Shown piece by piece: positions 13,104 to 61,343 of a stretch of DNA of 64,000 bases. Position numbers and translations under genes: made by a program. Below the pieces are notes generated by a model. That model did no database searches, was not told the DNA's origin, and saw only the letters and a list, made by a program, of their open reading frames with translations. Source of the DNA: Bilabrum cf. latius (lineage: Eukaryota); contig OZ237763.1 of assembly GCA_965178125.1 (NCBI GenBank), positions 186,001 to 250,000 of the forward strand, read 5' to 3'. Positions within the stretch are counted from its first letter, which is position 1. Each line of letters opens with the position of its first letter.

Positions 13104-15233
13104 TCACCCAAGGCCCCGCGGTTGACCGAAACCTACACCTGCATGCCCTGCGAGCACGCCAGCTGGCCCACTGCGAGGGATGCCTGCAAATGCCTAGTCG
13201 GCGGAAGGCTGGACCTGCGCGAACATTGACTTGGCTTGCTGGAGCAGCTGGGGCTCCCTACGCTTCAAGTTGCTGTTAAACCTGTTCTTGACAGCGTTGT
13301 CCGTCCTGCCATTCAGCATCGGGTGTCGAGCAATCTCCGCCCACCGATTGCCGTGGACCTGGCGCAGAGCAACGATTGCAGCGTCTTCTTCTGGCGTCCA
13401 TGGCCCGGTCCGAATGTTAGGATCGAGATGATGGTGCCACCGCTCGCGACATTGCTTCGCAGCACGGCCTTTAATCTGAGCCGCGATGTCCCTCCAATTC
13501 CTCGCGCCTCGATCCGCTACCAATCGCCGCAGCAAGGCATCTTCATCAGCAGACCACGAGCCTCGCGCCGAAGCGGCAGCGTGTCCACCTCCTCCCCGTC
13601 GAGATGGTGGTTCATAGTCTCCGTCAGTATCAGGCGAGTCGTGGTCGCGGGACGACTCCTCGTCTAGCCACACAGACGAGCCAGATGCTTGCGAGATGCG
13701 GCGCGAGCGAACGGTAGCAGCCTAGCCTGGCACGCGCCCAGTGCTGCTCAGCTGCAAAGGCGTGCTGCTAGACGCAGAGGCTTTCGAGCTGATGCTAGCA
13801 AGTTGCTTCTGTTGCTCCCTAGCTGCGTAGCCCATTGAGGCCGACTGATGCTGCTGGCTTCCTTGCTGCTGTGCTCTCCCGGACACGATTGGGAAATCAA
13901 GCGGTGTACCAGTCCCTCCGAGTCCTCCAGATTCACCATTGCTATGCAGGGGCATATTTGAGCGGCTTGCAGCTTGAAGTGACTGTCCACCCGGAGCAGA
14001 GGTGCCTCCTAGAAGCCTCGTCCCGAACGCCGACTGGTGGAACCGAGCTTGTGGCAATCCTCCTCCACCGAACCTAAACCCCTGGGAAGTGCCAGGCATT
14101 TGCGCGTATCCTCCAGGGTACCCACTTCCCTGGATCGGCATCTGCCCACCTTGTCCGAATGGTTGTATCCCGCGCCTCGAAAATTCAGCGTATGCCGCAG
14201 AGCCAGCCAAGCTTGGCATGGGCAGCCTCATGCCGCCCCTATGCCCCATCCACGGCATCCCCGGTACTAAGGAGGGACTAGGAAGGCCTGGTACCTATAG
14301 TTGCTGCTGTTGTTGCTTCTGCAGCATGGCTTCTCGCTCTACCATGGCTCGGATCGCTGCTTGGGGGTGCAGCAAGCCGGTGGGGTCCAATCCGAGCGCT
14401 CCACCCAATCCAGGAGCCCTACCCTAGCTCAATCCACCGAAGGTTTGAAAGGAATCACCTTGCATGCTCCTTTCGGTTGAAGCACCTGGTCCCACTGCGC
14501 CAAAACCACCGGATTGTCTGACATCTGTCAGTCGCCAATCAGCCGAAGGGGCGAGTCCACCATTGCTTTCACGGTGAAGCAATAACTCACTCGCTGCACT
14601 TGGACTGACTGAAGCGAGTTGCTGTAGGCCAGATATCTATGTGGAGGCTTGTGCTTCGCTAGAAGTGGAGGCTTGGGCTGCCTGCTCTGACACGCTTCCA
14701 GCAACTTCGGCGGACCCTGCGCTTTCGTTGGAAGACACTGCATCCGCGATGTCCTCGGTAGTATGCGTAGATTCGAGGTGAGACCGACGTTGCTTCGGAT
14801 GTGCGTGAGCCGCTGCAGGTGCATTGCTTGTCTATTGCTTGTCGTTGAGTCGCACCCCCGACGATCCCTGCCTACCCTCATCTAGCTTCCTTCCCGCGCT
14901 ATCCACGCGGGCTCGCTTACGGAATGGCTCGCCACTACCCTTTGTAGATGCATTGTGACCACGCGCACTCGATTGCTCGACAGCGCCACTGCCTGTTGTT
15001 GCAAATCCTCGAAACGATTGACCTTCCTGTTGGGCCGTGTAACCTTCCCGCATCGCACCGTTTCTTTGCACGCTTTGCGATCCATCAGGCTGTTGTGATT
15101 GTTGAATCTTCTTTCTTCTGTATTCGCAAAGTGCATCTTTCAGCACAGCATGAAGCTCGCGTTCGGCTACTCCCCACTCGCGCGCTGAAGCTCCCGTCGC
15201 TGCCTCCACAAGTGCAACGTCTTGACCATTCAT
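13104..15233 (-). CDS. R2R3-type Myb transcription factor with long low-complexity N-terminus (about 709 aa)
   Basis: Two Myb repeats (RGSWSADED...WRDIA...KQCRERWHHHL; GPWTPEED...GNRWAEIA...GRTDNAVKNRFN). One frame runs through TAGs at 14832, 14637, 14424, 14295, 13722 and 13194 to TGA at 13104. The start ATG at 15233 is inferred. Confidence 0.8.
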
Positions 15234-16843
15234 GGTGGAATTCCCCCTTAACACGGATACTGGAAAAGAGAAAGGGCGTATCCCTGCGAACATTAGAGTG
15301 AACAACAATGAGTTCGGTGCCGCGTCGCGATGTTGTCGGCATCGCCGAGCGACGAGGATGAACGAGCGAACCTAGCCCGGGGGCCATGATCATGCAAGCG
15401 AGCAGCGTTCGCTTCCAGGTCGCAACTCCACCGGTCACCCCTCCCGCCAAACATCTTGGAGCTTGATTAATACACGCATGATCGGCTACAGCTGCTCTGA
15501 ACTTCCGGGAGTTCTCCGGAGTATTGACAGTGCAGTCTCGGTCGGCCCTAACTGATCATGCAGAGCCATGCAACCAAGGAATAGTACAACAAGACTGGCA
15601 AGACTTATTGCTACAGCAAAATTTGTCAATCGAGATTGCCGGCACCAACGCGATTAGTGTCGTTTGCTGTCGCCTGCTCCAGACTGCTGCTGAACCAAAA
15701 CAACACCACCGTAGTCTGGTCCACTAGCCCAGAGAGCACGCACGCAAAACTTGTCGTTAGGGTACAATTAATCTCAAAATGGATGTTTTGACTCATGATA
15801 CACCAACACGTAGCTCAGTCTAGCCATTGCGGCGATAGGCGCATGCGGCCCTGACAGAATTAATCCTATCCAACGAAAAACTTGAGGCAGCCAACAATGA
15901 TGGGAAAGCTCTCTCGAAAGATAATTAACGGGTCTTGTATTTCCGCCATGAATACTATGTCGCCGAGGACATTCAAACGAGTTTCGATCGGTCAACATCC
16001 TATCAGAGCAGCAACACGGCGGGCACAACATGCACTATTGAGACACCTGAAGCTGTAGGAACGCTTTGATTTTAGCAACACAGATAAGAACTCGTCACGC
16101 ATAGTGAATTCTCACCGTTGTCTGTACTACTGGTGCTCTCAACCGTGGCTAAACGGTATCGGCTCAGCGATTGGTAGACGGTCAGGCGTATGTGGGGATG
16201 CTTTTAGTAGCACCAGGGTGTTGTTCGCGTCGTTTTAACGGGAAACTGGGAACGTTTCGTTTGTTGGGAATCGATGGGTATGGTGCTGCCAGCCCGGCCG
16301 ACACCTGGCCAACCGCCGCGCAATTCGGTTCCGCACACCAACCTTCAGAACAGTCGTGGCAAGGCGGTCATACAAGTACCCCGTTGTGCAGCACGTTTCA
16401 GGCATGGCTTTGCGGAAATGATTTCGGTTTCGCTGGACAAGTGTGCTGGGCACAACCGCTACAAGCCACGCAAGACTCCGCAGAGGTTTTCTTGCAATCC
16501 GGATGTGACGCTTGAACTGCGACCTTACGGCAACATGACAGAATCACCTGCATGTCGGTTGCGCAGTACGTTACCAGGACATCAACACTGGCACCACATG
16601 GCAGCGCTAAAGCACCGCTGGATAGCCCCGGCGGGTGCCGAGCCGGCATCATTGTCGAGCAGGCTCCCCTGACGAGGGAAACAAGGGCAGGCATTCACTC
16701 GCATCAAGCTGGCCAGACTCAGAGACTGTTCGCTGTTTTCTGATCCCAACCAGCTGCGCTGACTGGAAGCGCCGTGCCATGTAGGAGATGTTACACCGCG
16801 GTTGAGCGCGCGTTATTATGTTGTAATTTGACGAGCGGGCATG

Positions 16844-20230: not shown

Positions 20231-23200
20231 ATGGATGCGCCATTTGAAGGCGATGGAGTTGGGGCAAGCGAGTCGAAAGTAGCCATGGAGTACGATGGGT
20301 ACGATGGATACGATGGAGAGGGTATGGGGGAGATGGGTGAGGGCGGCGAACAGCTATATGATGATGAGATGCAAGCCGCGGAGTAGGAGGGGGACGCAGC
20401 CGGTAACCATTGGGTCGTGATTCGGGCGTACTTTGAAGAGAGGGGCCTCGTGATGCAGCAATTGGAGTCATTTAATCGTTTTTTGACCTACGGAATCCAG
20501 GAGATCGTGGATGATACTGCACCGATGTCGATTCGGCCTCGTGAGAACTACCTGCCTGGCGCTCGTCCCGTGGACCAGCGCTACGAGATCGGGTTCGGGA
20601 ACGTTATACTTTCGCTTCCCAAGTACGAAGACGAAGTGACCGACCAGTCTCAGAACGTGCATCCGAACGAGGCCCGCCTCCGCAACCTGACGTATGAGAG
20701 CTACGTGCACGTGCAGGTCAAGTGGACCGCCTTCAACAACGCCACTGGGGCCCAGGTGGGCGAGGAGGAGATGAGCGAGGAGCTCTTTGGCAGGGTGCCA
20801 ATCATGGTCAGGAGTAGGAACTGCCACTTGGATGGCCTCAACGACAAGGCCCGCACGCAGCTGGGCGAGTGCAAGTTCGACCAGGGGGGCTACTTCATCA
20901 TCAACGGGAGGGAAAAGGTCATCATCGCGCAGGAGAGACAGGCCTACAACAGGATCTACGCCTTCCACAAGAGAGAACCCTCCAAGATCGAGTGGTCCGT
21001 GGAGGTGAGGTCCATGACGGAGAATGTCAACCGGCCCCTGACGGCCTTCGACCTGCTCATGTACCGCCGGTCCACCAGCAAGCAGGTGCTCGAGGGGCAC
21101 CAGGTCAGGGCGAGGATACCCACCCTGCGGGCCCCCATCCCCGTGGTCATCTTGTTCAGGGCTCTCGGAGTCACCAACAGCGACAAGCGGATCCTGCAGC
21201 ACGTGGTGTACGACTTCAGCGACACGGAGATGCTCGAGAGGTTCAGGCCCTCGCTGGATGAGGCGCGGCCCATCCGGGACACGGACGCCGCAAGGGCCTT
21301 CATCGGGAGCAGGGCGTCGGCTGAGGCGGTTCGGCGGGAGGAGCGGGTCAGGTTTGCGGTGGACTGCCTCCAGAAGAACTTCGTGCCCCACGTCGGGGTG
21401 GACCCAAGCAGCGCGTGCCGCACCCGCAAGGCATTCTACCTCGGGTACATGACGCACAAGCTGCTGCAGTGTTCCCTGGGCCGCAGAGGGGAGGACGACA
21501 GGGACCATTTCGGTAACAAGCGGATGGACATGGCGGGGCCCATGATCGGCGGCCTCTTCAGGCAGCTCTTCTACAACGTGTACAAGGACATGAGGACCTA
21601 CCTGCAGAAGTCCATGGACAGGGGTAGGCAGCTCAACATCCCCCTGAGCATCAAGCACCAGACCATCAGCGGGGGTCTCAAGTACAGCCTGGCCACGGGC
21701 AACTGGGGCGTGCGGGGCGGCACCGTCAGCAAGACGGGCGTCTCCCAGATCCTCGAGAGGCTGACGTACGCGTCCACGCTCAGCCACTTGCGGCGCCTCA
21801 ACACCCCGCTGGGCCGCGAGGGCAAGCAGGCCACGCCCCGCATGCTTCACAACACGCACTGGGGCATGGTGTGCCCCTGCGAGACGCCCGAGGGCAGCAG
21901 CGTGGGCCTTGTCAAGAACCTCTCCCTCATGGCCCACGTGTCGGTGGGCTGCAGCCCCAAGTCGGTGCTGTCTCTGCTGGCCGAGAGCGGCATGCTGCTG
22001 CTGGATGACTGCTCCCCCTCCCACATCTCGTACGCCACCAAGGTCTTCGTCAACGGCAACTGGGTGGGATACATCCCCGAGGACGCCGAGCCCAAGAAGG
22101 TCGCGGAGAGCATCCGGGACCTCAGGCGGCAGCAGGTGCTGGAGCCGGAGGTGAGCGTGTTCAGGGACATCGGGGACCAGGAGCTGCACGTCTTCACCGA
22201 CGCGGGACGCACCTGCCGCCCCTTGTACATCGTCGACCCGCTGGACGAGGACGAGGACGGAGGGCTCGGCGCCGACGGGATGGACGGGATGGTGTACGAC
22301 GACGACGGGAACCTGGTGGCCGGTGCAGGGGGAGGCGCGGGTGGGGAGGGGAAGCGGGGCGAGGAGGAGGAAGGGGTGCGGCGACAGCGCCTTCGCATCA
22401 CGCAGGCGCACGTGAACAAGCTGGTGCAGCTGGAGGGGGTCGCTTCGCAGCTGACGCAGATCGAGGACAGCGCAGACACGCACGAGGAGCTGCAGCGGCT
22501 GGGCATCACGGAGGAAGACATTAGTAGCGCCTCGAGGCGGTTTACGTGGCTGATGAACGAGGCGGTGATCGAGTACATGGACACACTGGAGGAGGAGGGG
22601 GCCATGATCGCCATGTTCCCCTCCGAGCTGGAGGAGGGAAAGACCACCACCTACACGCACTGCGAGATCCACCCGTCCATGATCCTGGGGATCTGCGGGT
22701 CCATCATCCCATTCCCAGACCACAACCAGTCGCCCCGCAACACCTACCAGAGCGCCATGGGCAAGCAGGCCATGGGCCTGTACGCGAGCAACTTTCTGCT
22801 GCGGATGGACACGATGGCCAACTGCCTGTACTACCCGCAGAAGCCTCTGGTGGGCACCAAGGGCATGGAGCCCATGGCGTACAAGCAGCTGCCTGCAGGC
22901 ACCAATGCCATCGTGGGCATCCTGTGCTACACCGGCTACAACCAGGAAGATTCCCTCATGTTCAACCAGTCCTCCGTGGACCGCGGGCTCTTCAGGTCCA
23001 TCTACTACCGGTCCTACACAGCCGCCGAGGAGGAGGTGCCTCTGTCTGCCACCGAGGAGCAGGCCGCCGCGGGCCCCACCCCGAACGAGAAGCCCTGGAA
23101 GCTGATCGAGAAGCCCAGCCGGGGCACGGCCGGGCTCAAGCAGGACAACTATGACGCGCTGGACGAGGACGGGCTCATCGCGCCGGGGGTGGCTGTGTCC

Positions 23201-24385
23201 GGCGGCGACGTCATCATCGGGATGACTCAGACGGTGGCCGACTCGGACCTGCCCGGGTCGCAGGCCCGTGGGATCAACCGCAAGGACGAGAGCGTGATGC
23301 TGCGGCAGACGGAACGGGGCGTGGTGGATCAGGTGCTGCTGACCACGGGCCCTAGCGGGCAGCGCTTCACCAAGGTGCGGATCCGCAAGGTGAGGTACCC
23401 GCAGCTTGGCGACAAGTTCGCCTCGAGGCACGGGCAGAAGGGGACGATGGGCATGCTGTACAGGCAGGAGGACATGCCCTTCACGCGCAACGGCATCACG
23501 CCGGACATCATCATGAACCCACACGCAGTGCCCTCCCGCATGACCATCGGGCACATCGTGGAGTGCCTCATGGGCAAGCTGCTGACCATGCTGGGCTACG
23601 AGGGTGACGCCACGCCCTTCGCCAGCAGCGACCTTTTCTCCGTGGACAAGGTCAGCGACGCGCTGCACGATAGGGGCTTCCAGAGGAACGGCCTGGAGAC
23701 GCTCTACTGCGGGCACACGGGCCGGGCCCTGGAGGTGCCCATCTTCATCGGGCCCACGTACTACCAGCGGCTCAAGCACATGGTCGACGACAAGATCCAC
23801 TCGAGGGCGAGGGGGCCCACGGCCCTGCTCACCAGGCAGCCCCTCGAGGGCAGGTCCAGGGGGGGAGGCCTGCGGTTCGGAGAGATGGAGCGCGACTGTA
23901 TCCTGTCCCACGGGTCTGCCGCCCTGCTGCAGGAGCGCATGTTCATCAACAGCGACGCTTTCAGGGTGCACGTCTGCGAGTCGTGCGGGCTATTCGCGCA
24001 GGCCGACCTCAAGCAGCAGTACTTCGAATGCAAGGCCTGCGGGAGCAACAAGATCGCCCAGATCCGCATCCCGTACGCCTGCAAGCTGCTCTTCTAGGAG
24101 CTCATGGCCATGCAGATCGCAGTCCGGATGTTCACGGACGAGCGCACCAAGGCGGACGAGCCCGCGCCGGTGCCTGGTGCCATCATCGAGAGCGGCGACC
24201 CGCTGGCGGCTGCAGCGGGTGGTGCAGCTGCCGCGGATGCCGGTGGAGAAGTGCCCGCCGGGACACCGCAGCCGGGAGCGGACATTGCCATGGGCTTGGA
24301 GGGTGCCGCCCTCATGGAAGACGGCGATGCCGCGGGCGGAGACTTGGGCCACGAGGACCTGCTGGCCGGCGAGATGGCGACCTGA
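20231..24385 (+). CDS. RPB2: DNA-directed RNA polymerase II second largest subunit
   Basis: Motifs GGYFIING, DDRDHFGNKR, GDKFASRHGQKG, RLKHMVDDKIHSR, GLRFGEMERD, PYACKLLF[TAG]ELMAM. TAGs at 20384 and 24095; TGA at 24383. Start is ATG 20231 or 20285. Confidence 0.97.
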
Positions 24386-37796: not shown

Positions 37797-38055
37797 TTTT
37801 GTCGGCAATGAAGGGGCTTATGAGTGACCCGATTGATATATATGGATCAAGATTAGCTGCTTGGCGGCAGAGGCGTGATTCCTCTCCCCGCAGCGCTCTC
37901 AGCGCGATGCAAGCCACCGATGGAGGGCCAGCCTTGCCTCTCGAATAGCTTCAAAATCCGGTTTTGTGTTTTGTGCCGCCGCCTAAAATGATACTGTACA
38001 ATTATTCTCCGCCCCGTTTAAATCACAACAGGTATCTGACGCATCTGGTCCAGCA

Positions 38056-40085
38056 ATGAGCTCCAGTTCTTTGAGCAATGCTTTATTGTCTCATTTGTAG
38101 CGCTCTGGTACCGTTGATCAAGCCCGGGCTCAGATGAGAGCCCAGCTTGTGGCCCAGCTACGCGGCCGCCCAATATCAACTGCAACCGCAGCATCTATCC
38201 GTCGTACCACTGATGCCATGGGGACTAGGAGCGATTGCCTTGATGCAGCTGCTGTTGCTCACGCACTTGCCCGCGCATTCGCCCTCGGTCCCACCGAGGC
38301 CGTGCTGGACGCCGAGATGAAAGCTGCATGTTGCGATTCGGACAGGCCGTCTGTCAATCGCAGTGCGCGCGAGGTTCAAAGCACTGTAGAACGCTGGATT
38401 CACGCAGCATGTCCTCAGCCACTGCCACCTGGGTGCTCGGACACGGCCGGTCACCGTCTGCTGATATTCCTGCGCAGAGCTGGTTCGCGGCACCCGTCCG
38501 AGTCTGGTATGCGTGATGTGTTTGTCCAGACAGAGCCGACCAGTGCCCTCGAACAGCTCGATCAAAAAATGGACGCGGTTGCTCGCCAGTTCTAGCGCAA
38601 GGCGACGGCAGCTGGGGAAGATGCGGCATCTGCGGACAAGCCCGAATCTGGCACCCGCATTACGCAAGACGAGATCGAAGCTCGAGCCCGAGACAAGATA
38701 ACCGTGGAACTCGCTGCGAGGACCCGTTCGCTTGAGTCACAACTTGATGCAAGGCTGCAATAGTCTCTGGATGCTTGCAGGAAGGAATGCAAATCTCAAG
38801 TCGAGAGAAATCAAATTGAGTGTGAACAACGGATCGCAGCGATGCGCACTCAGGTAGAGAAAGCAGAATCAGCACTTGCCATGCAACGTGAATCTTATGT
38901 GCGCAAACTTGACGCCCTGAGGATTCGGGAACAGTCTGTTGCGGCAGCGGAAGGTGAGAATTATTTTAGACTGCGGCTTGGTGCCAATAGTGCCTATGGC
39001 GATTGAATTCCTCCTTCATGCCACCTCTCAACCAGTCAGCTAGTTGGGTAAGTTATTTTTGCCAACTGGTATTTTATTTGTTACTTACTTAAATCTGATA
39101 CACAGATTCACTTCAAGAAAAGATTCGTCGGTAGCAGCAATCGTATTCAAATTAGCTTGGCAATTTGAAGAGTAGAGAAAGCGATGTCGATCGACTGGAG
39201 CAAAGATTCCAATCAAGGCAGTCAGCAATCGAACGCTCTATACGAGGGGAGATAGAGGCTGAAATGAGAGAGTAGAGGTCAAGGGTCGAGCTGCTGCGGG
39301 CTGAGGCCGACGAAATTGTCCAATCAGAAAAAGAAAGAGTCTAGGAATCGCAACAGTAGCAAGAGAAGTACGAGCAACTTTCCGATTTGCATGCTTCAAT
39401 TTGTGGTAAATACGATGCCTGTAGAGACGAGATTCAAAGGCTGCATGCTCTTGTTAAGTCAAAAGACAAAGCAATTATTGGAATGCAAGAGAAGCTGCCA
39501 TAGGCTGCTGTGCTGATGCGAACTCAGTAGAATAACAGAATCTTGTCATAGTCGCTTGTCACGATCAGTGTAAGTTTATGTACAAGTATTGATTTGTGTT
39601 CACCTTGCATTTCAATATCTTATGAAAACTTGAAATTGACAATTTATTCTGCAGAGAAAGCTGAAAGAGCTGAAATTAGATCTTTAGGAGGTACGAGCAG
39701 CAGCTGATGGGTCATTTGAGACTGAAACGTCAATTTTGTCATCGGTTATCGAGTCTGTAAAGCAAAAGCAGGCTGCTCTTTTGACTCATTGTAAAAGACA
39801 CAAGAAGGCAGCAGCGGACATCGAGGATTTGATGGACCGATAGAAGCTTGCTTTTCAGAAGCAACAGCGCGACTTATTGTAGCAAGGTAAGGGCAGCATG
39901 GATTTATTATTTTGTGTTCATTTGTTTTAGAGTGCATGAGATCTATCCAGATTGCTTTGATTATTTTTGCAGTCGAGTTCTACAAGAGGAAGCAGTCGGA
40001 CGCACAGGCTGTAAATGAATCTCTAAAGGCAAGCTTGAAGCAATTGTCGAGTCTACTGGTTGATGCTGGAATTCATGCTGAGTGA
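38056..40085 (+). CDS. OFD1-like centriolar LisH/coiled-coil protein (about 570 aa)
   Basis: N-terminus LLSHLQRSGTVDQARAQMRAQLVAQL and VQTE...LDQKMDAVARQF resemble OFD1, followed by a long coiled coil. Exons 38056-38953, optional 39036-39047, 39106-39569, 39655-39886 and 39973-40085, all GT-AG and frame-consistent. About 14 in-frame TAGs; TGA stop. The OFD1 identity is from remembered motifs only. Confidence 0.65.
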
Positions 40086-40095
40086 TTTTTACCAA

Positions 40096-41633
40096 TCATC
40101 CACGAATCGCCCGCTGTAGGGTTAGTGAGTACACATCAACTTGCTTATAAAGTTTAAGCTATCCTTGAAGACTCTCGACTTCACGCCTCAGGTCGTCTAC
40201 TTCTCGGCCATATTCAACCTTCGTGCTGTGCAACCTGTCTTCGAGGTGTCCAATGGTCTTGCGAAGGCCATGGATGCATGAATTGGCTTCTTGGAGATCC
40301 CGGGAAGAAACGGAACGTAGCTGTTGAACTACTCTTGAGTTTGACGCTTTTGTAGCTGCTATGAGGGCAGCACGTGCATCATTCTTAGATTCAGTTGCAG
40401 CTGCTTTTGAATCCATGATCTCAAGCCTGGTCTGCGTACACAAAGCAAGAATAGGAATTTGTTATTTAAGAGTGCAAGCTTATTAAAATACGAAAGCCAT
40501 TGCATCAACTATGAGTCTCACATCATTGAGGTGCTAGCGTAACTCCCTGAGCTCCTGCTCATACTTGAAGCTAGATTCGCGAGCATCATCGTTGCGTTTC
40601 AGTGCCTGTTCCAACTACTGCCGACAACCGGTGAGATCTTTACGAGCCTATTGAATCGAAACTTCGAATTTGGATCGCTCATCGGCTTGCTGAGTTTCCA
40701 GGCGAATAACCTGAGGGACATTTGCACAGAAGAACAACTCAGTATCAAGGCGATATTCAATGAAGCGTCCTACACATAAACGTCATGATGCACTTGATAT
40801 CTACATCTTACGGTGCTGCGCGACTGTTCGACTTGCGCTTGCAATTTTGCATGCATTGACTGGTATCTACCGAGATCTTCCACCAGCTGTTTGACTGTTG
40901 TCGGCAGTTCAGTTGCGATATTGCTAACTTCATCATACAAATTGCAGGCTTGAGCATGAAAGAGAGACTGCTGCACCACAGACTGTAGCGATTCTGTTGC
41001 CTTTTGTGCATCAACAGCCAGCCTTCCTGCTTCCTCTCGCCTTCGGGTCTGTTCGTCGAGCTGCTCTCGCAGGTGGCGAATCTTGGACTAGCGGTCATCG
41101 AGCTCCTATTCCAACGCAGCAATCCTCTCCGCGTTAGCAGAAGATGCAGATCCGGACGCCCTGGTCAGCTGCTCAATCTACGAAGAGGCGCTCTTGAGCT
41201 GCTCATGCAAGTCTGACTTTGTACTGTTCCATTCGGCACGATCGGCGGCGTGCTCGCGCCTGACCCTGCTCAGCTCTTTTTCCAGAGAAGCTGTCATGGC
41301 ATGCGCAGCTTGATTGTCATGCTTCAACTGGGCATTTTCTGACTCCAGCTGCTGCATGGCGTGATCCAATCGACTTGCTTGACCGGTCAACGAGTCTTGC
41401 GTCCGATGCCACTCCGCTCGTTCGTCATCAACCTGCTGCTCAAGCTGTTCGAGTGCTTCTTCGAGCTACTTTGCTTCCTACGCACTCGACTGCAGCGATA
41501 CGACCTCGTCTTGAAGCTGTGACACCTTGTGCCTGAGGTCTGCAGCTTCCTACGAATACGACTCCAGGCCTGCACGCAGCCGATCTAGCAGAGCTGCCTG
41601 AGGGGACGAATCTTGCTGATGCGGAGATTGCAT
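40096..41633 (-). CDS. Coiled-coil protein of unknown function (about 448 aa)
   Basis: Exons 41633-40812, 40710-40522 and 40431-40096 with GT-AG introns in a consistent frame. Continuous E/Q/L/R-rich heptad pattern when about 10 TAGs are read as Gln; TGA at 40096. Confidence 0.75.
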
Positions 41634-41965
41634 GATGCGGGATAAATAAAAATTCGCGGATGCAGGCAGCAAAACCCCGCACAGCAAGATCTTGTGCTGA
41701 TCTTGGCGGCGGTTGCCGTTGCGCGAATTCGGACGGGCTCCGAGTCTGCGGTAGGCACGATCGAAATTTGCACTTTTTTTACACCATGAGTTTGCAAATC
41801 TTTCAGGTGTGACCCCTGGACTCTGACAAGTTTATATTACTCTCCTCCTGCCTTGGGTGTGCAATGTCCTTTCGTATAGAATCTGTACTCCGAAGCCTCA
41901 ATTATTCCAATAATCACTTCACGTTTGGGCTACAGGGACCGTTTCCTCAAACCGTACCATGCCTC

Positions 41966-44900
41966 TCACAGGTCGTCCATCAGATCCGCGAAAGGATCAG
42001 CCGAGGCAGCCTTCGGGGCTGGGGCTGGAGCAGGCACTGGAGCAGGCCCCGGCATCCCGCCCATGCCCATGCCCGCGCCTCCCCCCCCACCGAGGGAAGG
42101 CATCGGGGCAGGAGCAGGAGCAGGAGCCCCCAGACCAGCAAACGGGTCCCCGGAAGAAGCGGCCCCGCCAGGTGCCTGTGCGCCCCTCGGCGCCGGCGCA
42201 TGTGCCGTGGAGGGTCCTCCGCCTCCTCCCCCCAGATCAGCAAACAGGTCAACCTCCGCGGGCGCGGGCCCGGGCGCCGCAGACGTGGAAGGCCCTGAGG
42301 ACGCGGCTGTGCCCTTGCCCTCAAGCTCGTCGAAAATGTCGCCTCCCATGCTGGCAGAGGGGGCCGGGGCCGGCGCGGGCGCGGGTGCCGGAGCCGGGGG
42401 TGGTGCGGCCACCGGCGCCTGGAACCCCCCGAAACCGCGCGGGGCCTCGACGGGCGCGGGTGCGGGTGCCTGGAAACCCCCGAACCCCCGGGGTCCCCCG
42501 GTGGCACCCCCCACGGCGGGTGGGGGCACTGTGTCGTCACCCCCCTCCAGCATCAACGTAGGCGGCGCGCCGCCGGTGGGCGACCCCATGTCGTGCGGGT
42601 CTGGCATCGCCCCCCTGGCCCCCCCTCTGGCCGGCGTAGACCCCGCGCCCGCCCCTCCCGCCGCCACGTTCTTCAGCAGCAGCGTGGCGGGCCCCTTGTC
42701 GGCGTCGGTGAGGAAGTAGTCTCTCGTGTCGTTCTTGGAAATGAAGAGGTCGTGCTTCTGGTGCTTGTACTTGGACCAGTCTCCGCTCCTCGACGACAGC
42801 TGCGCCGATACCCTTTCCCCGTGCACAGAGTCCCGCTCCAGGAGCTTGATCACCTCGACCGCGTGCACCTTGCAAGCCCCGCTGTTGACCACCTGCTCGA
42901 GGTTGAACTTCTCCAGGATGTCCAGCATCAGGGGGACAGCACCTTCGTTCAGTGCAGCCAGTGCGTGAGGGTGATCGGGCCCCGCCACGTGCTTGGCGTC
43001 CTGCTCCAGCAACCTCCGGATGGTCTCCACGGTGAAGCTGGCATCCCTGTGCGGCTCCGGCTTGATGGATCTAACCAGCAGCCCGCACGCGCTGCCCTTG
43101 CCCAGGGCCCGCATGCACTCGGTTGAGGGCGCAAGAACCTCCACGAACCGGATCGCCTGGATCATCAGGTTGTACCTCGACGGCTTGCCGATGCTCTGAC
43201 GGAGCAGGGACAGAAGCTTAGGGACGTACCCCAGCTGCACCACCTGCCCGCCCATGGACTTCCTGGCTCGCAGCAGGCACACGAGAGCATTGGTGACCTT
43301 GGTGAGCACGTCCTCCCCCCTGATCACGAGGCTCCCCTCCTCCCCTCCCTTCCCCTTGGAGGACTGCCCGCCCGCCTTCTCCTCCCGCTCGGCCTCCTCC
43401 TTGGCCGCTCGCTCCGCTGCCCTCCTCTTCTCCTCGTCCGCACTCGTCATACCGATCAGGTGCTCGCCCTCTCTCTGGAAGCGCCTCAGCAACGCCTCCA
43501 GGAAGCCCCTCGGGTTCCGCAGTGGGAAGGTGGGCTCCTTGATGAACAGTCGCACGTACACCCCGCCCACCATCAGCTCGCCCTTCATGGGCCGGTACAC
43601 GATCCTAAAGGTGGCGGGCAGCGACTGCGGATGGCCATCCGCGCCGCCGGGCTTGCCGGCCTTGGCGGCGCGCTGCCTCGCCTGCGTGAGCGACTGCCCG
43701 ATCTGACCCAGCGCCCGCCTGAGCTCGTGCCTGCAGACACCGTCCCAGATGAGTTCGGGCGTCTCGTGGTCGCCATCAAACACACGCACGGCCTCGCCCA
43801 ACGAACTCTCCCCGCCAGCACCCGCGGCCCCTTGCCCCACGCCGCCTGACCCCACCGCGGCCCCGCCCGCCACAGTGGACGCCGCGATCGACTCCTTGAT
43901 GCTCATGGCCAGGTTCTCGGGGACCAGCTGCCGCAGCGCCATCAAATTGGGCGGGCCTTCCGTCGAGTCGGAGCACATCATGCTGAGAAGGGCGCCAGCC
44001 TCGAAGCGCGCGGGCCTTGGCACCTGTAGCTTGGGCGTCTCACGGATGTCTGGGCCTCCGGGCTCACCGGGGGCGGGGCCCTTGGCGATGCCACCCGCGA
44101 ACATGGTCACGACGTCAATGATAGAGCACACGCGCCGGGCCTCGGCAATGATCACCTGGTGACTGAACAGGGTCCGCAGGAGCGGGCCGATCCCGGTCGG
44201 GGCCGCAGGTAGCATGCGCAGCAGGGGAGGCACGAGGTACATGCCGGCCAGCGTCTTGGCGAACCGTTCGTTGCTGGCGCAGGCAGCCAGGCAAGCCAGA
44301 GCCAGCTCCCGGAGAGGTGCGTCCGCCTCGGCAGCCGTGCTGCGTGCCCCTCCCATGCCAGCGCTGGCACCCGACCCGGCCCCCGTCTTGCCGAACTCCG
44401 TGGCGGCCTGCCTGGCGTTGTGCGCCGCCTGCGCGTCCTCGAGCCTGAGAGTGGCCATGAGGTTGGGCAGGTACCGAGCGGTGGCCGGGTTGCCGATCTC
44501 CTCCTCCACACCGGCGTTGTGCACCACCACGCCGTGCAGGGCCCGCAGTGCCAGACGCAGGTGCGGGATGGACACGTCTGCCGGCGTGCGGGCGCACATC
44601 TGGTCCATCTCCTCCTCGAACTCCTCCTGCTCCGACTTGGGCGCGGGGGAGTCCCCACTGGCTCCTCCAGCGGCGGCCCCGCCTTCGACGATGCCCCTCG
44701 ACTTGGCCTGCTGCCTCTGCAGGGCGCCGTGCTTTGGCTTCTTGATGCCCGGCAGCTTGAGCCTGGGTCCCGCTCTCGACATGGCAATGTAGGCCATGAG
44801 GCCGCGGAGGAAGGCGTGCGGGTTGTCCAGCGTCAGGGTCGGATCGCTGACGAAGAATCGGACGAAGAGACCCTCGATGCACAACTCGTCCGCCAGCGCG

Positions 44901-47900
44901 CTGTGGTTGAACTGTGTGGCTGCATCCGCTTCGGTGCGACCCGTCTCGCTGAGCTCGTCGCAGTGCTTCTTGAGGAAGCGCAGCAGCTCCTTGCGCATGT
45001 CTGCGTTCCACATCACGGTCGGCGACTCCTCGTGGCCCACCAGCGACTTGAGCAGGGAGTCTGGGCTCGCCCTGCCGAGCCTCTTGGCCAGCGGCGGGGT
45101 GATCATCTGCCGCATCATGCGCTGCACCCTTGGGTTCTTCGGGGTGGCCATCTTCTTCTCGTGCGCCAGGTACCCGCCCAGCCGCCCCACGGCCCTCACG
45201 GAGAGCTTGGCCATGTGGTTCGCGGCCTTCTGCTCGTTGGCCACCGTATGGCCCTCCGTGGCAGCCCCTTCCAGGGTCGTGTCGAACCGGAAGAAGAGGG
45301 GGACCAGCCGAAAGAGCGCGCCCGCCTGCACCATCTTGCTCTGCAGCTCTGGCAGCGCGGCGAGCCTCGAGACCATTTCGAGCGCATACTGCATCACCTT
45401 TGCCGCCCGGAGGTACCGCAGGCAGTGCACGATGTTGGTCATCAGAGTGTCCATCTTGGTCATCCTCTCACGGGCCTCGGGCAGCGTGGCCAGACCGCTG
45501 AGCGTGCGCATGACGTTCTCCACCACCCTGAGGCCCAGCTCGTCACCCCGCTTGGGCAGCGGCTTGTCGGGCAGCAGCGCCTTGGTGCCGAAGGGGACGT
45601 CCTTCACCAGCTGACCAAGCAGCTCCGCGAGCGCTTCCGTCCCGTCCTCCCTGACGAGCTCCTCCGCGTTGCGAGGGGAGGTCAGGCACGTGAGGTAGAT
45701 GAGGCGGGTCAGCGCCTCGGCCATGGGCCCGCTGTCTCCGGTGATGGGCGTGTCCTTGGGGATCTGCCGGATGGCCTGCATGACCAAGGGGTACCCCGCG
45801 TACTTGTAAGGCTTGAGCACCTTGGTGTGGCGCTTGAAGAGGATGCACTGCGTGCGGACCAGCAGCAGCAGAGCCACAGGGTCGGGCCCACCGGCCGCTG
45901 CCTCGGGCCTAGAGGTGGTCAGGGCCTCGTAGGCCCTCTGGATCTGCATGAACCTGTCTCTCCCCGCGGGGTTCTTGTCCGGATGGAACTTCCTCGCCAG
46001 CTTGCGGTAGGCCTTCCGGATGTCCGATTCCTCGGTTCCCGGTTCCAGCCCCAGCTCCTTCCAGGCAGCCGTCATGTCCACCTTGTCTTCGTCGGTCTTG
46101 TTGGTCTCCAGCCTCCAGTTGTCGAGGGCCGCGCGAAGCAGCATAACAGGGTCGTCGATGTTCCACTCCGGGAAGCGCTGCTCGTCCGTGAGATTGCGAA
46201 GGTAAAAGTTCGAACACCAAAGCTCCTCGTCGAGCTCCTCGTACTGCACCCGGGGGATGGGGCAGTAGTCGTAGATGGTCGCCGGGTTGGCCCTCAGCCT
46301 CGCGGGCAGCTCGCCCAGGTGCTGCGAGATCATGTCAATGAGCTGCCCCCGCATGGCATACTTCCAGATCACCTCCGGATTGTCCACGTCGGACAAGAAG
46401 GCGTTGGCGAAGACCTTGGGCCCCCGGTTGGCTAGCACGCAGATGATGGACTCGGGCAGCATGGCGCCCAGGATGCTCCTCCTCCCCAGCGTGGTCTCTC
46501 TGCCCAGGGAGGCGGCCTCGGAGAAGAAGGACTGCCGCAGGTGCGTGGCGTGCAGCAAGGCAGCCGCGTGGTCCCAGTTGCTGCCCGGGTAGGCCAGCAG
46601 GAAGAAGAACAGGCCGGTGGTGTACAGCTTGACCGTGGCGCGGGGGTTGAAGCTCACCACTTCGTTGATGAGCTGGCACACAAGGTCGGTCAGGGTGGCG
46701 TCTCCTGCCAGCACGGCCTGCGCCAGGTGCGGCATCACCCGCTGCGACGACAAGATCCGCTTCACCTTGGGGACGGGTCTCACTGGCACCCCCTCCGTGT
46801 CGACGGACGGCCTCAGCCTGGCCAGCCTGAGGAGGATGTTGGCGCAAGCGATGCCCCTCTTGGAGGGAGACATGCCGGGCTCTCCCGGCGACAGGGCGAA
46901 CCACATGAGCGCCCGCATGGCGTCCATGCGCACCCACTGGCGCATGCCCTGGGCCCACACCATGGTGGACTTGCTCAGGTGGCCGGCCTTGGCAGCCTGC
47001 TTCATCTGCTGCAAGGAAAAGGGGCCCTTCTAAGCCTCCTTGCCAGTCTTGCCTGCCGCCTGGAAGTGCCACACCTTGGCGCTCTCCTTAGACCGGCGAA
47101 GGGCCGCTGCAGCAGCGGCCTGGTCTGCTTGCGTGGGTCCCCCTGGGCCGCCTGCGCTGCCAGCGGCCGTTGCCGAGGCGCCCGCGTCTGCTCCCGCTCC
47201 CGATGCCGCGGCGCTCTCCTGCCCCCTGCGCTCCGCCTCCGCCGCAGCAAAGTCCTGGTCGGCGTCGCCCAGCAACATGAGACCGCCCCCCTTGCCGCCG
47301 CTGCCCAGCACGGGCATGACCCTCTGGTCTACCTCGGTGGTGTGGGCCGTGGTGAGTAGGTCCACGATGAGCTCGATGCAGTCCTGATTGATCAGCTTCT
47401 CGCAGTTGACGGGGTGCGTGGACAGCGCTGCAACCAGCTGCAGCAGGTGGTCCCTGACAGTGGCGTGGTCCTCCTGGGCCAGCAGCCACACCATGTAGTC
47501 AGTGTCCTCGAAGGGGCCGATGGCCTTCCAGTGGTGCGTGTACACCCGCTCCATGCCCATGAGGCACATGGACCGCAGCTGCGGGGCCGTCTCGCGGAGC
47601 ACGCGCCGGTACAGCGCATCAAAGAAGCTAGAGGGTTCTCGCAGCGCAGCCACGGCAGCTCCGCCTCCCTCTAGGAACACGCGGAGGTACTGGTCGCCCA
47701 CCCGCAGCTCCTGCGCCAGCGAGGGGTAGTCCACCTCGAACTCGCTCCAGTTCCATGCCAGCCTGTACCTCCCCACAATGGCGGTGGACTCGCCCTCCTT
47801 CCCCTCCTCGCCCTCTTTGCCCTCCGAGGCACCCGCGCCGCTGGCCGCCTCTTTCACGCCGGCGGCCCCCTGCACGTTGTTGGTGACGTTGCCCTCGGCC

Positions 47901-50673: not shown

Positions 50674-51179
50674 TACCGTTCGCGGTAACTGCTGAGCCCA
50701 ACTGTAAAACGGCTGATAGTAGTGTGCCGTCTGTTTTCTTCAGCAAGGTTCAACTTTTTGCCAGGCAATAATTTGGTATCCAAGCAAGCAAGGAGGCCGC
50801 GTGAGATGATGCAACCCGCGCTGCTACCCTGTACCTCTTGGTTTCCTGGAGATCGAGACAAGTGGATTCGCTCAATCAAGTGCGAGCTCCTTGCAGGCAA
50901 TCTCGGGCGCAAACCCCCAGTCTTGTACAATTCGAGCGATTTAACGAAAGATATTTCGGACGCATTAAAATCGATATATTTTATTGTACAGTGCAATATA
51001 GTTGAGTGGATGACTTTTGTCCTTACTCCCGCCGTAGAATGGAAGGTGAAGCGCTACCTGCACACTGATTCATTTTACAGTGCATGGGTTGTCGCTTGCA
51101 CCGCCTGATTTGTATGTAGATCGACCATTTCGAGGTTTGAACTCGCGTCTGGTCGGGTCGAGCCTTGGCTATCAACGGC

Positions 51180-52253
51180 ATGTCCATGCTTGACCCTGCC
51201 CTGTCGTCTCATGAATATTTTAGTCATGGATCATCGCTACATGCCGCACACTCACGCCTGGTCTGGATGCGAGACTTCGTCGCGGCGTACGAGGAGCTCG
51301 ACAGTTCTGAAATGGGGTCCGCAAGATCTAGCGGTAACCACAAGCGTTCAAGCGGAGACTAGCAGCAATCGATAGATATCCGCAGAGTCTAGCGGCTCCA
51401 AGCAAGGAGTGCCAGGACCTAGTCTGCGAGGCAAGCCAGCACATTTGCTACGTTTCACCGGCTGACATCGCCGGCGAGCCTGAGAGAGCTTCCAGAAACA
51501 GCATACAGCATTCGATAGATGCGTTACGATGCATAGAAAGAGTAGGAGGCGTGCTTTCTCGCTGCTCCTGTTGCATCGCTCCCAGAAGTGATCCTCACGC
51601 CGCGGGTGAGGCCAGACCCGAGCGATGCGGTCGCACCGACTGGCAGCCGGCTCAGCGTGGGCGGCAGTGGGAGGGTCAGCTGGGAGCCGGTGCGGCTGCG
51701 CCCCAGGGAACAAGTACCAGCTGCTGACGAGCTCGTGCGTCGCTTGCTGGGGACTGGCCCAGGCGGCAGCGGTATCTAGGGCGAGGGCGAGGGCAAGGGA
51801 GAGGGCGAGGGGCTGGGCACCCAAGGGTAGAGAAGGCGGGCGGCCGCCACTGGCAAGGGCCCACGGGGTATGACTCGCCGGCGTGGTGCTGAAGGAGGTG
51901 CTAGTGGTGGGCATGTGAGCCATAGGAAGGGAGGGGGCTTATCTCGAGGCTGGCCAGAAGAGGACGAGGACGAAGATGAGCAGGATGAGGAGGATGATTG
52001 CGATGGCGATTGGCTTGCCTTGGGAAGGCAGGGCAGCAGCAGAAGCAATACCGGTGGGGATGGGCTGCATAGTCGCGGCCCTCGACATCTACCCACGATA
52101 ACCGCTGGTTCTGCGTCTGATCAGCAGCGGAGCAGAGGCGGCCGTGGCGGGAGGGGCAAGGGGAGGACGGGCAGGAGAAAGGATATGATCGGGGCTAGGG
52201 CAGTGGATGAGGCGCTCATGGCGCTCCTTCGAGCAGATTTAGAGGATGGTTAA
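51180..52253 (+). CDS. Hypothetical protein (about 357 aa) with acidic and RG-rich C-terminus
   Basis: Three ORF-track fragments in one frame, bridged by 8 TAGs with no TAA or TGA until TAA at 52251. No recognisable family. Confidence 0.6.
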
Positions 52254-52820
52254 AGTTACCTTGGTATTGTGTCGCACTGCATTGTTCATCTCCTGGTTGA
52301 TCACCATTGCGGTGGTCAGAGCCTGTTTCGCAGTAGAATTTGACAAGTCTCTAGGTCTGCATCCCGCTCCATGGCTCAGACAGGACTATTCAATTGCCCC
52401 ATTATCGTCTATACAGGGTCGATCGCGCGCTACTCGTCTAGTGTTGGTCGAATCTCTGTCCTCTCTGGGCGCTGCGGCAGCATTGGGCCCAAAACCGATG
52501 CTTGGCAATGCAGCCTGCTCAGCATTGCAGCTCGAACCCCGGAACGAGTGCACTGCAAGCGTGGGTACACCAAATGGCACCCTGTCGCGGGTTGTAGGAT
52601 GAACAGGGCGCACCATAAGCACTGTAGCATGTGTTGCTACATGCCACCGACCTTATCAGCTAGCCCTGATATTGCTGATCCGCGGCACAATAGACACTTT
52701 GAACAGCCCGCATGAAACTCGGTAGCGTACAGACTCGTGCTAACCATATCATCTTCAGCCGTGGCGTGCATCTTCCCTTTTCTGCAAACCATACTGTAGT
52801 ACTGGGGCCTATCGTCCGGC

Positions 52821-53102
52821 TTAGCCTTTCTCTCGATCTACAATTCCAATGCGCACATGCAAGTCAGGACCGCCCATCATCTTCAGCTACTTTTCTGCTT
52901 TCCTCATCATGTACTCAATTCTCTTGATATCGAACCTCGAGACAGATTCTGCTCCGTGCCGAAACGAAGTCCGAACATAGTGGATTGCATCGAGTTTGGA
53001 GTCCTCCCCATTCTTTTCATAGGCCGCCCGCAAGCATCTTCGGTACAAACCAAGCACTTGCTTCTAAAATCCTGATAAACGTCGCGACTGCCGAGCTGGC
53101 AT
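52821..53102 (-). CDS. SDHAF1: Succinate dehydrogenase assembly factor 1-like LYR-motif protein (93 aa)
   Basis: Translates as MPARQSRRLSGF[TAG]KQVLGLYRRCLRAAYEK...YVRTSFR...FDIKRIEYMMRKAEK[TAG]LKMM...; LYR motif and the SDHAF1/Sdh6 pattern (SGLQ..VL.LYR; IEY..R....QL). TAGs at 53064 and 52887; TAA at 52821. Not present as an intact ORF in the track. Confidence 0.85.
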
Positions 53103-53238
53103 GGGGCGATATGACTGAGTGATTTGCACTGATTTTGCTGAGGTGGCGTCATCGTCACACATCGAAGCCGGATGCAGCTGCTTTGCACGGCCCACACAGG
53201 CCCGTGCAGCGCGCAAACAGGCAACGAATCGCCCCGAA

Positions 53239-56200: not shown

Positions 56201-56374
56201 GAGGCCTGCCAGGGTGGCAGAAAGGAATGCGCGGCAGACGGAGCAACCGACCGCAGCGCCGAGCATCGCGGCAAAGCTCAGCGCACCTGCCTGGATCCCA
56301 GCGATATGTCCAGCCCCAGTGGCAAGTGCCGATATTAAAACTGGTACCAGAACTCCATAGCGAGGGAGGCGCAT
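53239..56374 (-). CDS. SQLE: Squalene monooxygenase/epoxidase with N-terminal membrane segments and insertions (about 940 aa)
   Basis: Motifs DVVIVGAGTAG, RIVGEFLQPGG, GRSFHNHRF, IADGMFS, SHFVGLVL, LLGDAWNMRHPITGGGMSVAL, NVLANAMY. Exons 56374-55817 and 55503-53239. TAGs at 55964, 54184, 54169, 53767 and 53428; TGA at 53239. An additional upstream exon is possible (AG just before the ATG). Confidence 0.92.
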
Positions 56375-58198: not shown

Positions 58199-59484
58199 AT
58201 GGCTGCCACTGAGCCAAAAGCTCTATCCGTAGGTGATCTTGATGAGTAGATCGAGCGCCTCAAGCGCTGTGAGCACCTGAAGGAAAGCGAGGTGAAGGCG
58301 CTGTGCGCGCGCGCTCGTGAAATTCTCGTGGACGAAAGCAACGTGCAACGAGTAGAGGCTCCTGTCACCGTGAGTTTCTCGCTAAAGTACAATTTACTTA
58401 CAGTCAAGATCAACTGAAGGGTGCTAACGTTTCCCTGTGTTTCACCTTTTGCTGTGTATTTGTGGTCGCGCGGTGACGACACCTCAGGGGAGAAATCGCA
58501 GCGGTGGCAAGCACTGTTGTTCTTTGCAGTCTGGCAGGACGCTGGTGGCAAGCACTTGACTTTTGATTCGTGTATGTCTGGTGCTGTTCTAGACGCTGCG
58601 GCGGCTTGTCTCGCTGCGAGAGACCCGATCGTTTTCCGTAACGTCTCTCATCTTCCGTTTGAAGCGAATGCCGACCACCACGCCGCGCGCACTTCACGCA
58701 CTGCTCGCAGATCGTCGGTGACATCCACGGCCAGTTTTACGACCTTGTGGAGCTGTTCAAGGTTGGTGGCGAGTGCCCCGACACGAACTACCTCTTCCTG
58801 GGAGATTTCGTGGACCGCGGCTTCTATTCGGTCGAGACGTTCCTGCTCCTGCTTGCCCTCAAGGTTCGCTACCCCGAGCGGATCACTCTGATTCGTGGCA
58901 ACCACGAATCCCGGCAGATCACCCAGGTTTACGGTTTCTACGACGAGTGTCTGCGCAAGTACGGCAGCGTCAACGTGTGGCGCTACTGCACGGAGATCTT
59001 CGACTACCTCTCCCTGGCCGCCCTCGTGGACGACAAGGTCCTGTGCGTGCACGGGGGACTGTCCCCCAGCATCCACACGCTGGACCAGATCCGCGTGATC
59101 GACCGGAAGCAGGAGGTGCCCCACGACGGCGCCATGTGCGACCTGCTCTGGTCCGACCCCGAGGACATCGACGGGTGGGGCCTCAGCCCCCGCGGGGCAG
59201 GATACCTCTTCGGGGCGGATGTGGTGACCAAGTTCAACCAGACCAACAGCCTGGAGCTCATCTGCAGGGCGCACCAGCTGGTCATGGAGGGCTTCAAGTG
59301 GATGTTCGGGGAGAGGCTGGTGACCGTGTGGTCTGCCCCCAACTACTGCTACCGCTGCGGCAACGTGGCCGCTATCCTGGAGCTCGACGAGCACCTGGAG
59401 CGCTCCTTCAAGATCTTCGAGGCCGCGCCACAGGAGGCCCGCGGGGTCCCGAGCAAGAAGCCGGCGCCCGACTACTTCCTGTGA
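58199..59484 (+). CDS. PPP4C: Serine/threonine protein phosphatase 4 catalytic subunit (PP2A family), 314 aa
   Basis: Motifs DLDE[TAG][55 protein letters not shown]-terminal DYFL. Exons 58199-58369 and 58711-59484. Confidence 0.93.
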
Positions 59485-60294: not shown

Positions 60295-61343
60295 TTAAAT
60301 CATTCCCTGCTGTTCGAGAGTCGCCTTGGCCTGGACTGCCTGCAACGTTGCCAGTGCCCCTGACTTGAGGCACGACTTGAACTTCTTGCCGTCTGACCGG
60401 CTTGCAGGCCCAGCATCCCTTAGCCCCCCTCCGCTGGCGAAGTCGATGAAGTTCTGCAGCTCGCCCTTGTCCCCCTTAATTTTGAATGTGAGCGTGCAGG
60501 GCATCACCTTCATGCGCTTTGCAGGGTCAGTGATGTGCTGGTCGGGCCACACAGCCAGCACGGTCACCTCGGTCTTGCGCTCGGCCGTCTCCTGGCCCCT
60601 CATGCGGTTGATCTGCTTGCTCAGACGACTTATCGCCCCTCCCCTCCACTTGGGCTTGCTCGCCTTCACGAAGAAGAAGCGCGCCACGCTGTCAGGGCCT
60701 TCCTGTCCCTCCTGCGCACCCAGGTAGTCGTCTAGCACTCGATTCATGGGTCGTTTGCCATCAAGGCACAACTCGGTGATCTTGGATTTGCCCAACCCGC
60801 CATTCACATGCAACAGCCCATTGTGTTTGGTGTACTGATCGGGGTTGGCGAATTCTGAAAACATTTGGTCAGCATATGAGCCAACAACAGCAATCTGCGA
60901 GGCAGCGGTGGAGGGGCGGGCAGTCGAGGCCTACGATCGAGCCAAGTGTCTACAACCAGAGCCACCGGGGTGCAAGGGTCTGTCTACTGCAGTGCCGGTG
61001 CTCTTACCTTCAACGGGGATGCATTCTGCTTGTCCTAGGATTCGTAGTTGCGGTACATTGAGAAGATGTCCGTGCTGCCACCGCACGGGCCCGCAGGCCA
61101 CTGCCCATCTTCTACATCCTCCTCCTCCTCGTCCTCCTCGTCTTCCTCCTCCTCTGACTGTTTTACTTCGTTGATGAGCTCGATTTTGTCAAAGTCGTCT
61201 TGTTCCGGCTCTTCATCAAGGGATGGATCCATAGTATTAGCGCTGCTTGTGGCAGAATGCCTGACTGCGTGCGACCCTGTCCTCACTGAGAGAGCAGAGA
61301 CCGACAGCGCCAGAGCAGCGATCACGCATGCGATCGAACGCAT
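60295..61343 (-). CDS. Secreted hypothetical protein with signal peptide and acidic tract (about 311 aa)
   Basis: Signal-like MRSIACVIAALALSVSA followed by an E/D-rich tract. Exons 61343-61008 and 60894-60295 (GT-AG intron). TAG at 61035; TAA stop at 60295. Confidence 0.7.

Follow-up and report, generated by a model that had tools for sequence, protein, structure and literature searches.

The 64,000-nucleotide (nt) stretch of contig OZ237763.1 analysed here, referred to below as the window, very probably employs a genetic code where UAG serves as a third glutamine codon and both UAA and UGA terminate translation, with UGA as the dominant stop. This is the type of code that we take to be NCBI table 15, and it would have been reached by way of a glutamine tRNA with the anticodon CUA together with a changed eRF1. 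Codon tallies, stop counts and gene lists are throughout limited to the window. The evidence that UAA was not reassigned along with UAG comes above all from two convergent coiled-coil genes at 38056-41633, AT-richer genes in which CAA is as common as CAG. They are as follows.

Gene 1, 38056..40085, plus strand: coiled-coil protein of 569 codons; exons 38056-38953, 39106-39569, 39655-39886 and 39973-40085; TGA stop at 40083-40085.
Gene 2, 40096..41633, minus strand: coiled-coil protein of 449 codons; exons 41633-40812, 40710-40522 and 40431-40096; TGA stop at 40098-40096.

Models of both genes were built from reading frames and GT-AG sites and then checked on assembled contigs. Gene 1 contains 14 TAG, 24 CAA and 18 CAG codons, with a GC content at third codon positions (GC3) of 0.50; gene 2 contains 10 TAG, 16 CAA and 26 CAG, with a GC3 of 0.52; and there is no in-frame TAA in either. 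Taken together, the two genes have 24 TAG, no TAA and no TGA in frame beside 40 CAA and 44 CAG, and TAG provides 19-25% of their glutamine codons. The first-pass annotation of this DNA had put the tally at about 24 TAG with no internal TAA, and counting both genes shows these figures to be exact. The two off-frames of the same exons hold 14 TAA, 15 TAG and 60 TGA. TAA is present in the DNA, yet it is kept out of frame in the same way as TGA, and TAG is enriched in frame. If TAA had followed the CAA share of each gene, the probability of observing none would be 5.8e-8 in these two genes, and it is 4.3e-10 once a second AT-richer case, the following Myb gene, joins them.

Myb (R2R3) gene, 13104..15389, minus strand: 730 codons from the first ATG, TGA stop; GC3 0.54, with 6 TAG, no TAA, 33 CAA and 26 CAG.

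The contigs used were Logan contigs. Those of runs X5, X6 and X7 come from two studies, neither of which is that of the best DNA holders, and X2 is a DNA-like run that is colinear with the genome over 38897-57599. The three introns of gene 1 (38954-39105, 152 nt; 39570-39654, 85 nt; 39887-39972, 86 nt) are skipped in contigs of X5, X6 and X7, and the two introns of gene 2 (40432-40521, 90 nt; 40711-40811, 101 nt) in contigs of X5 and X6. Exactly at the predicted sites in every case, these five introns are GT..AG when read on the strand of their gene. Contig 9 of X5 spans exons 1-3 of gene 1, with all 14 TAG, and contig 15 of X6 spans 40810-41650, which includes exon 1 of gene 2 and six TAG; neither contains a single letter that differs from the genome, and no letter differences are listed for the X5-X7 contigs anywhere across the two genes. 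The TAGs of both genes are present in transcripts, unedited. One X5 contig of 3117 nt, with all five introns removed, bridges 38036 to approximately 41666 (the far end being obtained by arithmetic). The stop codons of the two genes are 10 nt apart (40083-40098); since a single spliced contig bridges both genes, their 3' ends overlap and each 3' untranslated region lies over a coding exon of the other gene. Another short intron (27 or 69 nt, with ...CTACAG at its end) was considered for gene 2, close to its 3' end, and rejected, as the contig does not skip it.

An AT-richer island carrying many apparent nonsense codons under the standard code might invite the explanation that these genes are decaying pseudogenes, or that TAG is edited to CAG in the RNA. 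This explanation has next to no probability. The only codon to interrupt the frames is TAG, 24 times as against no TAA and no TGA, with 14 TAA and 60 TGA to be found in the off-frames; splicing of the two genes, with five GT-AG introns removed, is seen in three runs, and the spliced contigs keep the genomic letters. In addition, the essential and conserved genes for RPB2, an LYR-family protein and squalene epoxidase (described below) also carry in-frame TAG. A Pfam search with the exons of the two genes assigned no family to either, the best match for gene 1 having E = 0.014 and gene 2 giving sub-threshold coiled-coil matches.

The GC content of the 38056-41633 island is 0.49-0.50, compared with 0.55-0.76 elsewhere in the window and 0.59-0.76 in the adjoining sequence. 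The low-GC island extends over some 4 kb (38000-42000) and has five introns in 3.6 kb, the neighbouring genes of 2,300-4,100 codons having none or one. It should also be noted that three pieces of gene 1 (38732-38910, 39092-39216 and 39629-39783) recur in X2 as diverged copies, with 12-14 differences per 125-179 nt, on other long contigs of 9.5-28.8 kb; these copies may derive from paralogues, from a second haplotype or from a related strain.

Across the window, codons were tallied in 13 frames, each a coding sequence (CDS) or open reading frame (ORF), amounting to 16,739 codons. TAG occurs in frame 78 times, and TAA and TGA do not occur in frame at all; the two off-frames contain 140 TAG, 60 TAA and 557 TGA. 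There are 117 CAA and 620 CAG codons in the same frames, so that TAG represents 9.6% of the glutamine codons over the window. When the TAG count of each gene is multiplied by its CAA:CAG ratio, approximately 48.7 TAA are expected, as against none seen. This bears on the proposal that both UAA and UAG are read as glutamine (table 6, as in Ulvophyceae, hexamitids and many ciliates), TAA having gone unseen through GC bias or chance. Most known lineages with a change of UAR (UAA and UAG) to glutamine have altered both codons together, and in the GC-rich genes, where CAA makes up 1-5% of CAA plus CAG, fewer than one TAA would be expected per gene. GC bias does not account for the AT-richer genes, in which 24 TAG are accompanied by no TAA at the probabilities given above, nor for the shortfall over the window as a whole; three ORFs, moreover, end at TAA, and the tail of one of them, the LYR-family protein, matches that of its homologues in length. 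Use of UAA as glutamine beside UAG was not found in the window (78 TAG, no TAA), and we consider reassignment of both codons to be extremely unlikely.

A search for sense TAA on both strands covered 326 TAA. In some frame, 37 of them are flanked on either side by 60 or more open codons; none of the 37 lies in the frame of a recognisable gene. The flanked TAAs are off-frame or antisense to GC-rich genes, are situated just upstream of starts, or fall within the intergenic stretch at 15.4-17.1 kb, the translation of which looks non-coding. The TAG share of glutamine codons is 2-5% where GC3 exceeds 0.8 and 19-44% where GC3 is 0.5-0.6 (Spearman -0.73, p = 0.005, n = 13). That the share falls with rising GC3 fits a drift from CAG to TAG that is tolerated mainly in weakly GC-biased genes. 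By our count, 14 of 16 genes have at least one in-frame TAG, from which it follows that gene calling with the standard code would cut short a large share of the proteins. With TAG read as glutamine, the window resolves into large, mostly single-exon genes.

The identity of the amino acid can be judged from conserved proteins, for which the relevant genes are these.

RPB2 (RNA polymerase II second-largest subunit), 20231..24385, plus strand: single exon with a TGA stop; seven Pfam Rpb2 domains.
LYR-family gene, 52821..53102, minus strand: 93 amino acids (aa); Pfam Complex1_LYR, E = 1.3e-10.
Squalene epoxidase, a further gene in the window.

The two TAG codons of RPB2, at 20384-20386 and 24095-24097, fall in columns where, out of 120 homologues, 108 and 116, respectively, have glutamine; the second corresponds to the Q of KLLFQELM, a glutamine in all four of the solved RPB2 chains compared. 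A word-based homologue search with the 93-aa LYR protein gave no matches; an exhaustive HMMER search gave 357 relatives, 150 of which were compared by column. The LYR TAG at 53066-53064 corresponds to glutamine in 147 of the 150, and that at 52889-52887 to glutamine in 86, the other residues at the latter including lysine (29), arginine (14) and tyrosine (10). In squalene epoxidase, a TAG 62 codons from the end is inside the stretch that aligns with human SQLE, where the human residue is serine; the alignment continues for 19 residues beyond this TAG, which is thus read through. On the strength of these alignments, TAG is taken to be a glutamine codon in the genes of the window.

As for termination, the 16 genes end with TGA in 13 cases, TAA in three and TAG in none. 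TGA is found at 13 of 16 gene ends and, as noted, 557 times off-frame versus never in frame. The first-pass annotation had named three genes ending in TAA (at 52251, 52821 and 60295), and all three are true ORF ends in the window.

TAA at 52251..52253, plus strand: end of o51141 (CDS 51180-52253, plus strand, no Pfam family, eight in-frame TAG); next in-frame TGA 30 codons on.
TAA at 52823-52821, minus strand: end of the LYR gene; next in-frame TGA 22 codons on.
TAA at 60295..60297, minus strand: end of o60295 (60295-60864 from the first ATG, minus strand, no Pfam family); next in-frame TGA 13 codons on.

Contig 11 of X5 is colinear over 51034-53111 and spans both of the convergent genes that end in TAA, o51141 and the LYR gene. 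An Atlas search with o60295 returned only bacterial clusters at chance level (score 0.84). It could be argued that TGA is the sole true stop, with TAA either unassigned or a sense codon of very rare use, the three TAA 'ends' being read through to the next TGA, which follows within 13-30 codons in every case; for two of the three genes there is also no family against which to check the C-terminus. Such a scheme would need all three in-frame TAAs to lie at extreme 3' ends, with none in 16,739 internal codons. The residues beyond each TAA are rich in cysteine and histidine and look non-coding by eye. The tail of the LYR protein past residue 76 is 17 aa in length, where 150 relatives have a median of 18 and an interquartile range of 14-29, and the closest relative, P0121 (64% identity), has no likeness to the extension that read-through would produce. 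We therefore regard TGA as sole stop as very unlikely, with the reservation that what speaks positively for TAA as a terminator is modest, being consistent but thin. Within the window, the first-pass proposal that UAA was not reassigned together with UAG is well supported by the absence of TAA from 16,739 codons against about 49 expected, by TAA at three of 16 gene ends and by the tail of the LYR protein. The comparison of internal and terminal codons that had been suggested alongside it gives, for the window only, 78 TAG, no TAA and no TGA internally, and 13 TGA, three TAA and no TAG as terminators.

P0121 is itself a 77-aa fragment that lacks a starting methionine and begins at the match to residue 24 of the window LYR protein. 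This start may reflect the edge of a contig or else a related organism in which a stop codon interrupts the frame.

A different question is whether UAG might have two meanings, specifying glutamine inside genes and acting as a stop in certain contexts, for example near the 3' end, as in codes of the Condylostoma type and those of karyorelicts. The last TAG of gene 2 is 20 codons upstream of the TGA, the codons between them have a lower GC3 (hand count), and contigs cannot show where RNAs end. The transcript contig nevertheless continues through the end of gene 2 with no extra intron, and no gene of the 16, admittedly a small sample, needs TAG as a terminator. The squalene epoxidase TAG, 62 codons from the end, is in conserved sequence, and one of those in RPB2 is 95 codons from the end. 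An ambiguous UAG is unlikely, and UAG as glutamine with UAA and UGA as stops is the reading that we follow below.

The organism can be approached through RPB2. The best matches are metagenome proteins, Cafeteria roenbergensis (at 55% identity, with 93% of the query aligned) and Bicosoecida sp. CB-2014; oomycetes come next. In a collection of 5.8 billion proteins the top identity is 61%, and the organism's own RPB2 is absent from it. A quick IQ-TREE analysis (LG+G4, with support from the Shimodaira-Hasegawa-like approximate likelihood ratio test, SH-aLRT, only) was run on 33 rows, consisting of the window sequence and 32 of the 120 matches listed; the rows were hand-picked to include the top metagenome matches together with named stramenopiles, green plants, one fungus and one animal. 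C. roenbergensis and two further proteins together form the sister group of the window (SH-aLRT 98), and all of these fall, along with Bicosoecida sp. CB-2014, in a clade of 10 rows with support of 100. An origin from a green alga, which had been guessed from the high GC content and the low-complexity proteins with much alanine, glycine and proline, was rejected, the tree placing green algae and plants in a separate clade. A second gene is also informative.

PanB-PanE fusion (ketopantoate hydroxymethyltransferase and ketopantoate reductase), 17166-19946: one ORF.

Among the 20 matches listed for this fusion, the only named organism with just these two parts is C. roenbergensis. C. roenbergensis is the nearest named relative, sharing the RPB2 sister clade and the fusion with the window. 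Its genome is GC-rich and intron-poor, it uses the standard code, and its proteins in the database, such as RPB2 (1318 aa), are full length in the calls of their sources. In our judgement, there is a strong likelihood that the window belongs to the nuclear DNA of a heterotrophic stramenopile, GC-rich and poor in introns, that is related to Cafeteria (Bicosoecida) and uses the table 15 code. Spliced contigs at least 99% alike to the window were found in runs of two studies labelled as two other organisms, and the organism of the window may be present in samples or cultures that are labelled as something else.

How such a code might arise can be set out in a few steps. UAG would be decoded by a glutamine tRNA with the anticodon CUA; a single substitution in tRNA-Gln(CUG), which reads the dominant CAG codon (620, versus 117 CAA), could produce it. 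Because C34 cannot pair with A in the third position, UAA would be left to eRF1, which in turn is predicted to have lost or weakened its recognition of UAG, with that of UAA and UGA being kept. A GC-rich genome would favour this UAG-only route, as CAG and tRNA(CUG) dominate there and genes usually stop at TGA; TAG stops will probably have been few enough to be captured. AT-rich lineages, in turn, would favour a route by way of the UUA anticodon, which takes both codons. Sense TAG would then build up by CAG-to-TAG transitions, mostly in weakly GC-biased genes. A combination of tRNA-Gln(CUA) and an altered eRF1 is the logically expected mechanism for a code of this kind.

Several points weigh against the reading given here and have to be set beside the evidence in its favour. 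The first concerns the way in which the frames were defined: for 10 of the 13 frames in the tally, TAA was treated as a stop when their limits were set, which makes the zero TAA in them partly circular. Contigs support the structures of only gene 1, gene 2 and RME-8 amongst the 13; these three, being verified in that way, are free of the objection, and the Myb ORF is partly free of it. Secondly, the RNA status of X5-X7 is a guess, no run being on record as RNA, although the guess is made credible by the skipping of introns in their contigs. Thirdly, UAA as a stop depends on three genes, two of them without a known family, and with a TGA within 13-30 codons of each TAA the structure of the ORFs alone does not separate termination from read-through. 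Fourthly, the four TAG codons of the PanB-PanE fusion are in variable or gapped columns, where glutamine is tied with arginine at one (five of 20) and absent at three; solved PanB structures have arginine, arginine and glutamine at the tied site. Fifthly, neither decoding component was encountered: ARAGORN finds no tRNA genes in the window, so that neither a CUA tRNA nor the absence of a UUA tRNA is seen there, and there is no eRF1 gene among the ORFs of the window. Finally, the placement by RPB2 is that of a single gene with a long window branch (0.59) amongst picked rows.

Codes of this kind are already known, and it is the lineage that is new. In excerpts of the report on Iotanema spirale (Metamonada: Fornicata), which was the first, in 2017, to describe a code with UAG only as glutamine and with UAA and UGA as stops, Panek et al. 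argue for tRNA-Gln(CUA) and an altered eRF1, there being 'a single possible anticodon' (PMC5304391). I. spirale and the window thus have the same codon table and the same predicted mechanism. To go by those excerpts, I. spirale is an anaerobic fornicate for which the data are a transcriptome only and UAA is the primary stop; the window, in contrast, belongs to another supergroup, is GC-rich genomic DNA and has TGA at 13 of 16 gene ends. Protocruzia tuzeti and two independent lineages of phyllopharyngean ciliates also read UAG but not UAA as glutamine, and McGowan et al. (2024) argue, in the portion of the paper available to us, that UAG can evolve separately from UAA by virtue of a CUA anticodon (PMC11687900). 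As far as can be told from that portion, the code is the same as that of the window; those organisms are ciliates, known for frequent code changes, whereas the RPB2 of the window groups with bicosoecids. The Ulvophyceae, hexamitid diplomonads, Streblomastix, Amoeboaphelidium and many ciliates are given, in extracts of two papers, as reading UAR as glutamine (table 6; PMC11687900, PMC8271138). They resemble the window, on the evidence of these extracts, in having TAG as glutamine and TGA as a working stop, and differ from it in that TAA is glutamine as well. In the green alga Scotinosphaera, again in extract, UAG is serine and UAA is kept as a stop (Li et al., 2021; PMC8271138); it is similar to the window in that UAG was reassigned apart from UAA in a non-ciliate, and dissimilar in that the amino acid is serine there and glutamine here.

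A search for a variant nuclear code in stramenopiles or bicosoecids found none in the full text of open-access papers and bioRxiv preprints. It is possible, though we hold this rather tentatively, that the window represents the first nuclear code change in stramenopiles, an independent origin of UAG-only glutamine in a GC-rich relative of the bicosoecids through conversion of tRNA-Gln(CUG) to tRNA-Gln(CUA). If this is true, a CUG-to-CUA tRNA route favoured by GC-rich genomes would account for UAA not having followed. The reassignment of UAG and UAA separately from each other in nuclear genomes was long thought to be constrained, and according to the extracts cited only a handful of lineages show it; the window adds a phylogenetically distant lineage to the UAG-only codes. 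Genomic DNA with spliced contigs makes the predicted tRNA-Gln(CUA) and eRF1 changes directly checkable, unlike in Iotanema, and a GC-rich genome in which TGA is the main stop is relevant to the part that base composition plays in determining the code variant that arises.

Bicosoecids are hosts of giant viruses, such as Cafeteria roenbergensis virus. Excerpts of a giant-virus catalogue indicate that isolates so far come from hosts with the standard code and that code 15 is among those fitted to metagenome-assembled genomes (PMC13524828). By way of speculation, a Cafeteria-like flagellate with the code described here would be a plausible type of host for giant viruses in which TAG is glutamine.

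The window holds the following further genes.

TIG/cadherin/Kelch protein, 4137 aa.
Deaminase-domain protein.
SNF2/HSA protein, 3405 aa.
RME-8: one intron, 49007-49149, confirmed in X5.
ADF/cofilin-like gene, ORF 57146-57544, minus strand: TGA stop, one in-frame TAG.
PP2A-like catalytic subunit, plus strand: TGA at 59482..59484, directly after a C-terminal DYFL.
Proteasome beta subunit.

The DYFL at the end of the PP2A-like protein is what we take to be the conserved PP2A C-terminus. In RME-8, one X5 contig skips 42375-42686 (312 nt), which has the non-canonical ends GC..TG and is located in the proline- and alanine-rich C-terminal tail; rather than an intron, this gap is more likely to reflect a collapsed repeat or a variant in length. 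The region of the ADF/cofilin-like gene, 56537-57544, has the deepest contigs in X5-X7 (120-920, versus 5-60 elsewhere), and these contigs are unlike the genome beyond 57510, which suggests that there is an intron at that point.

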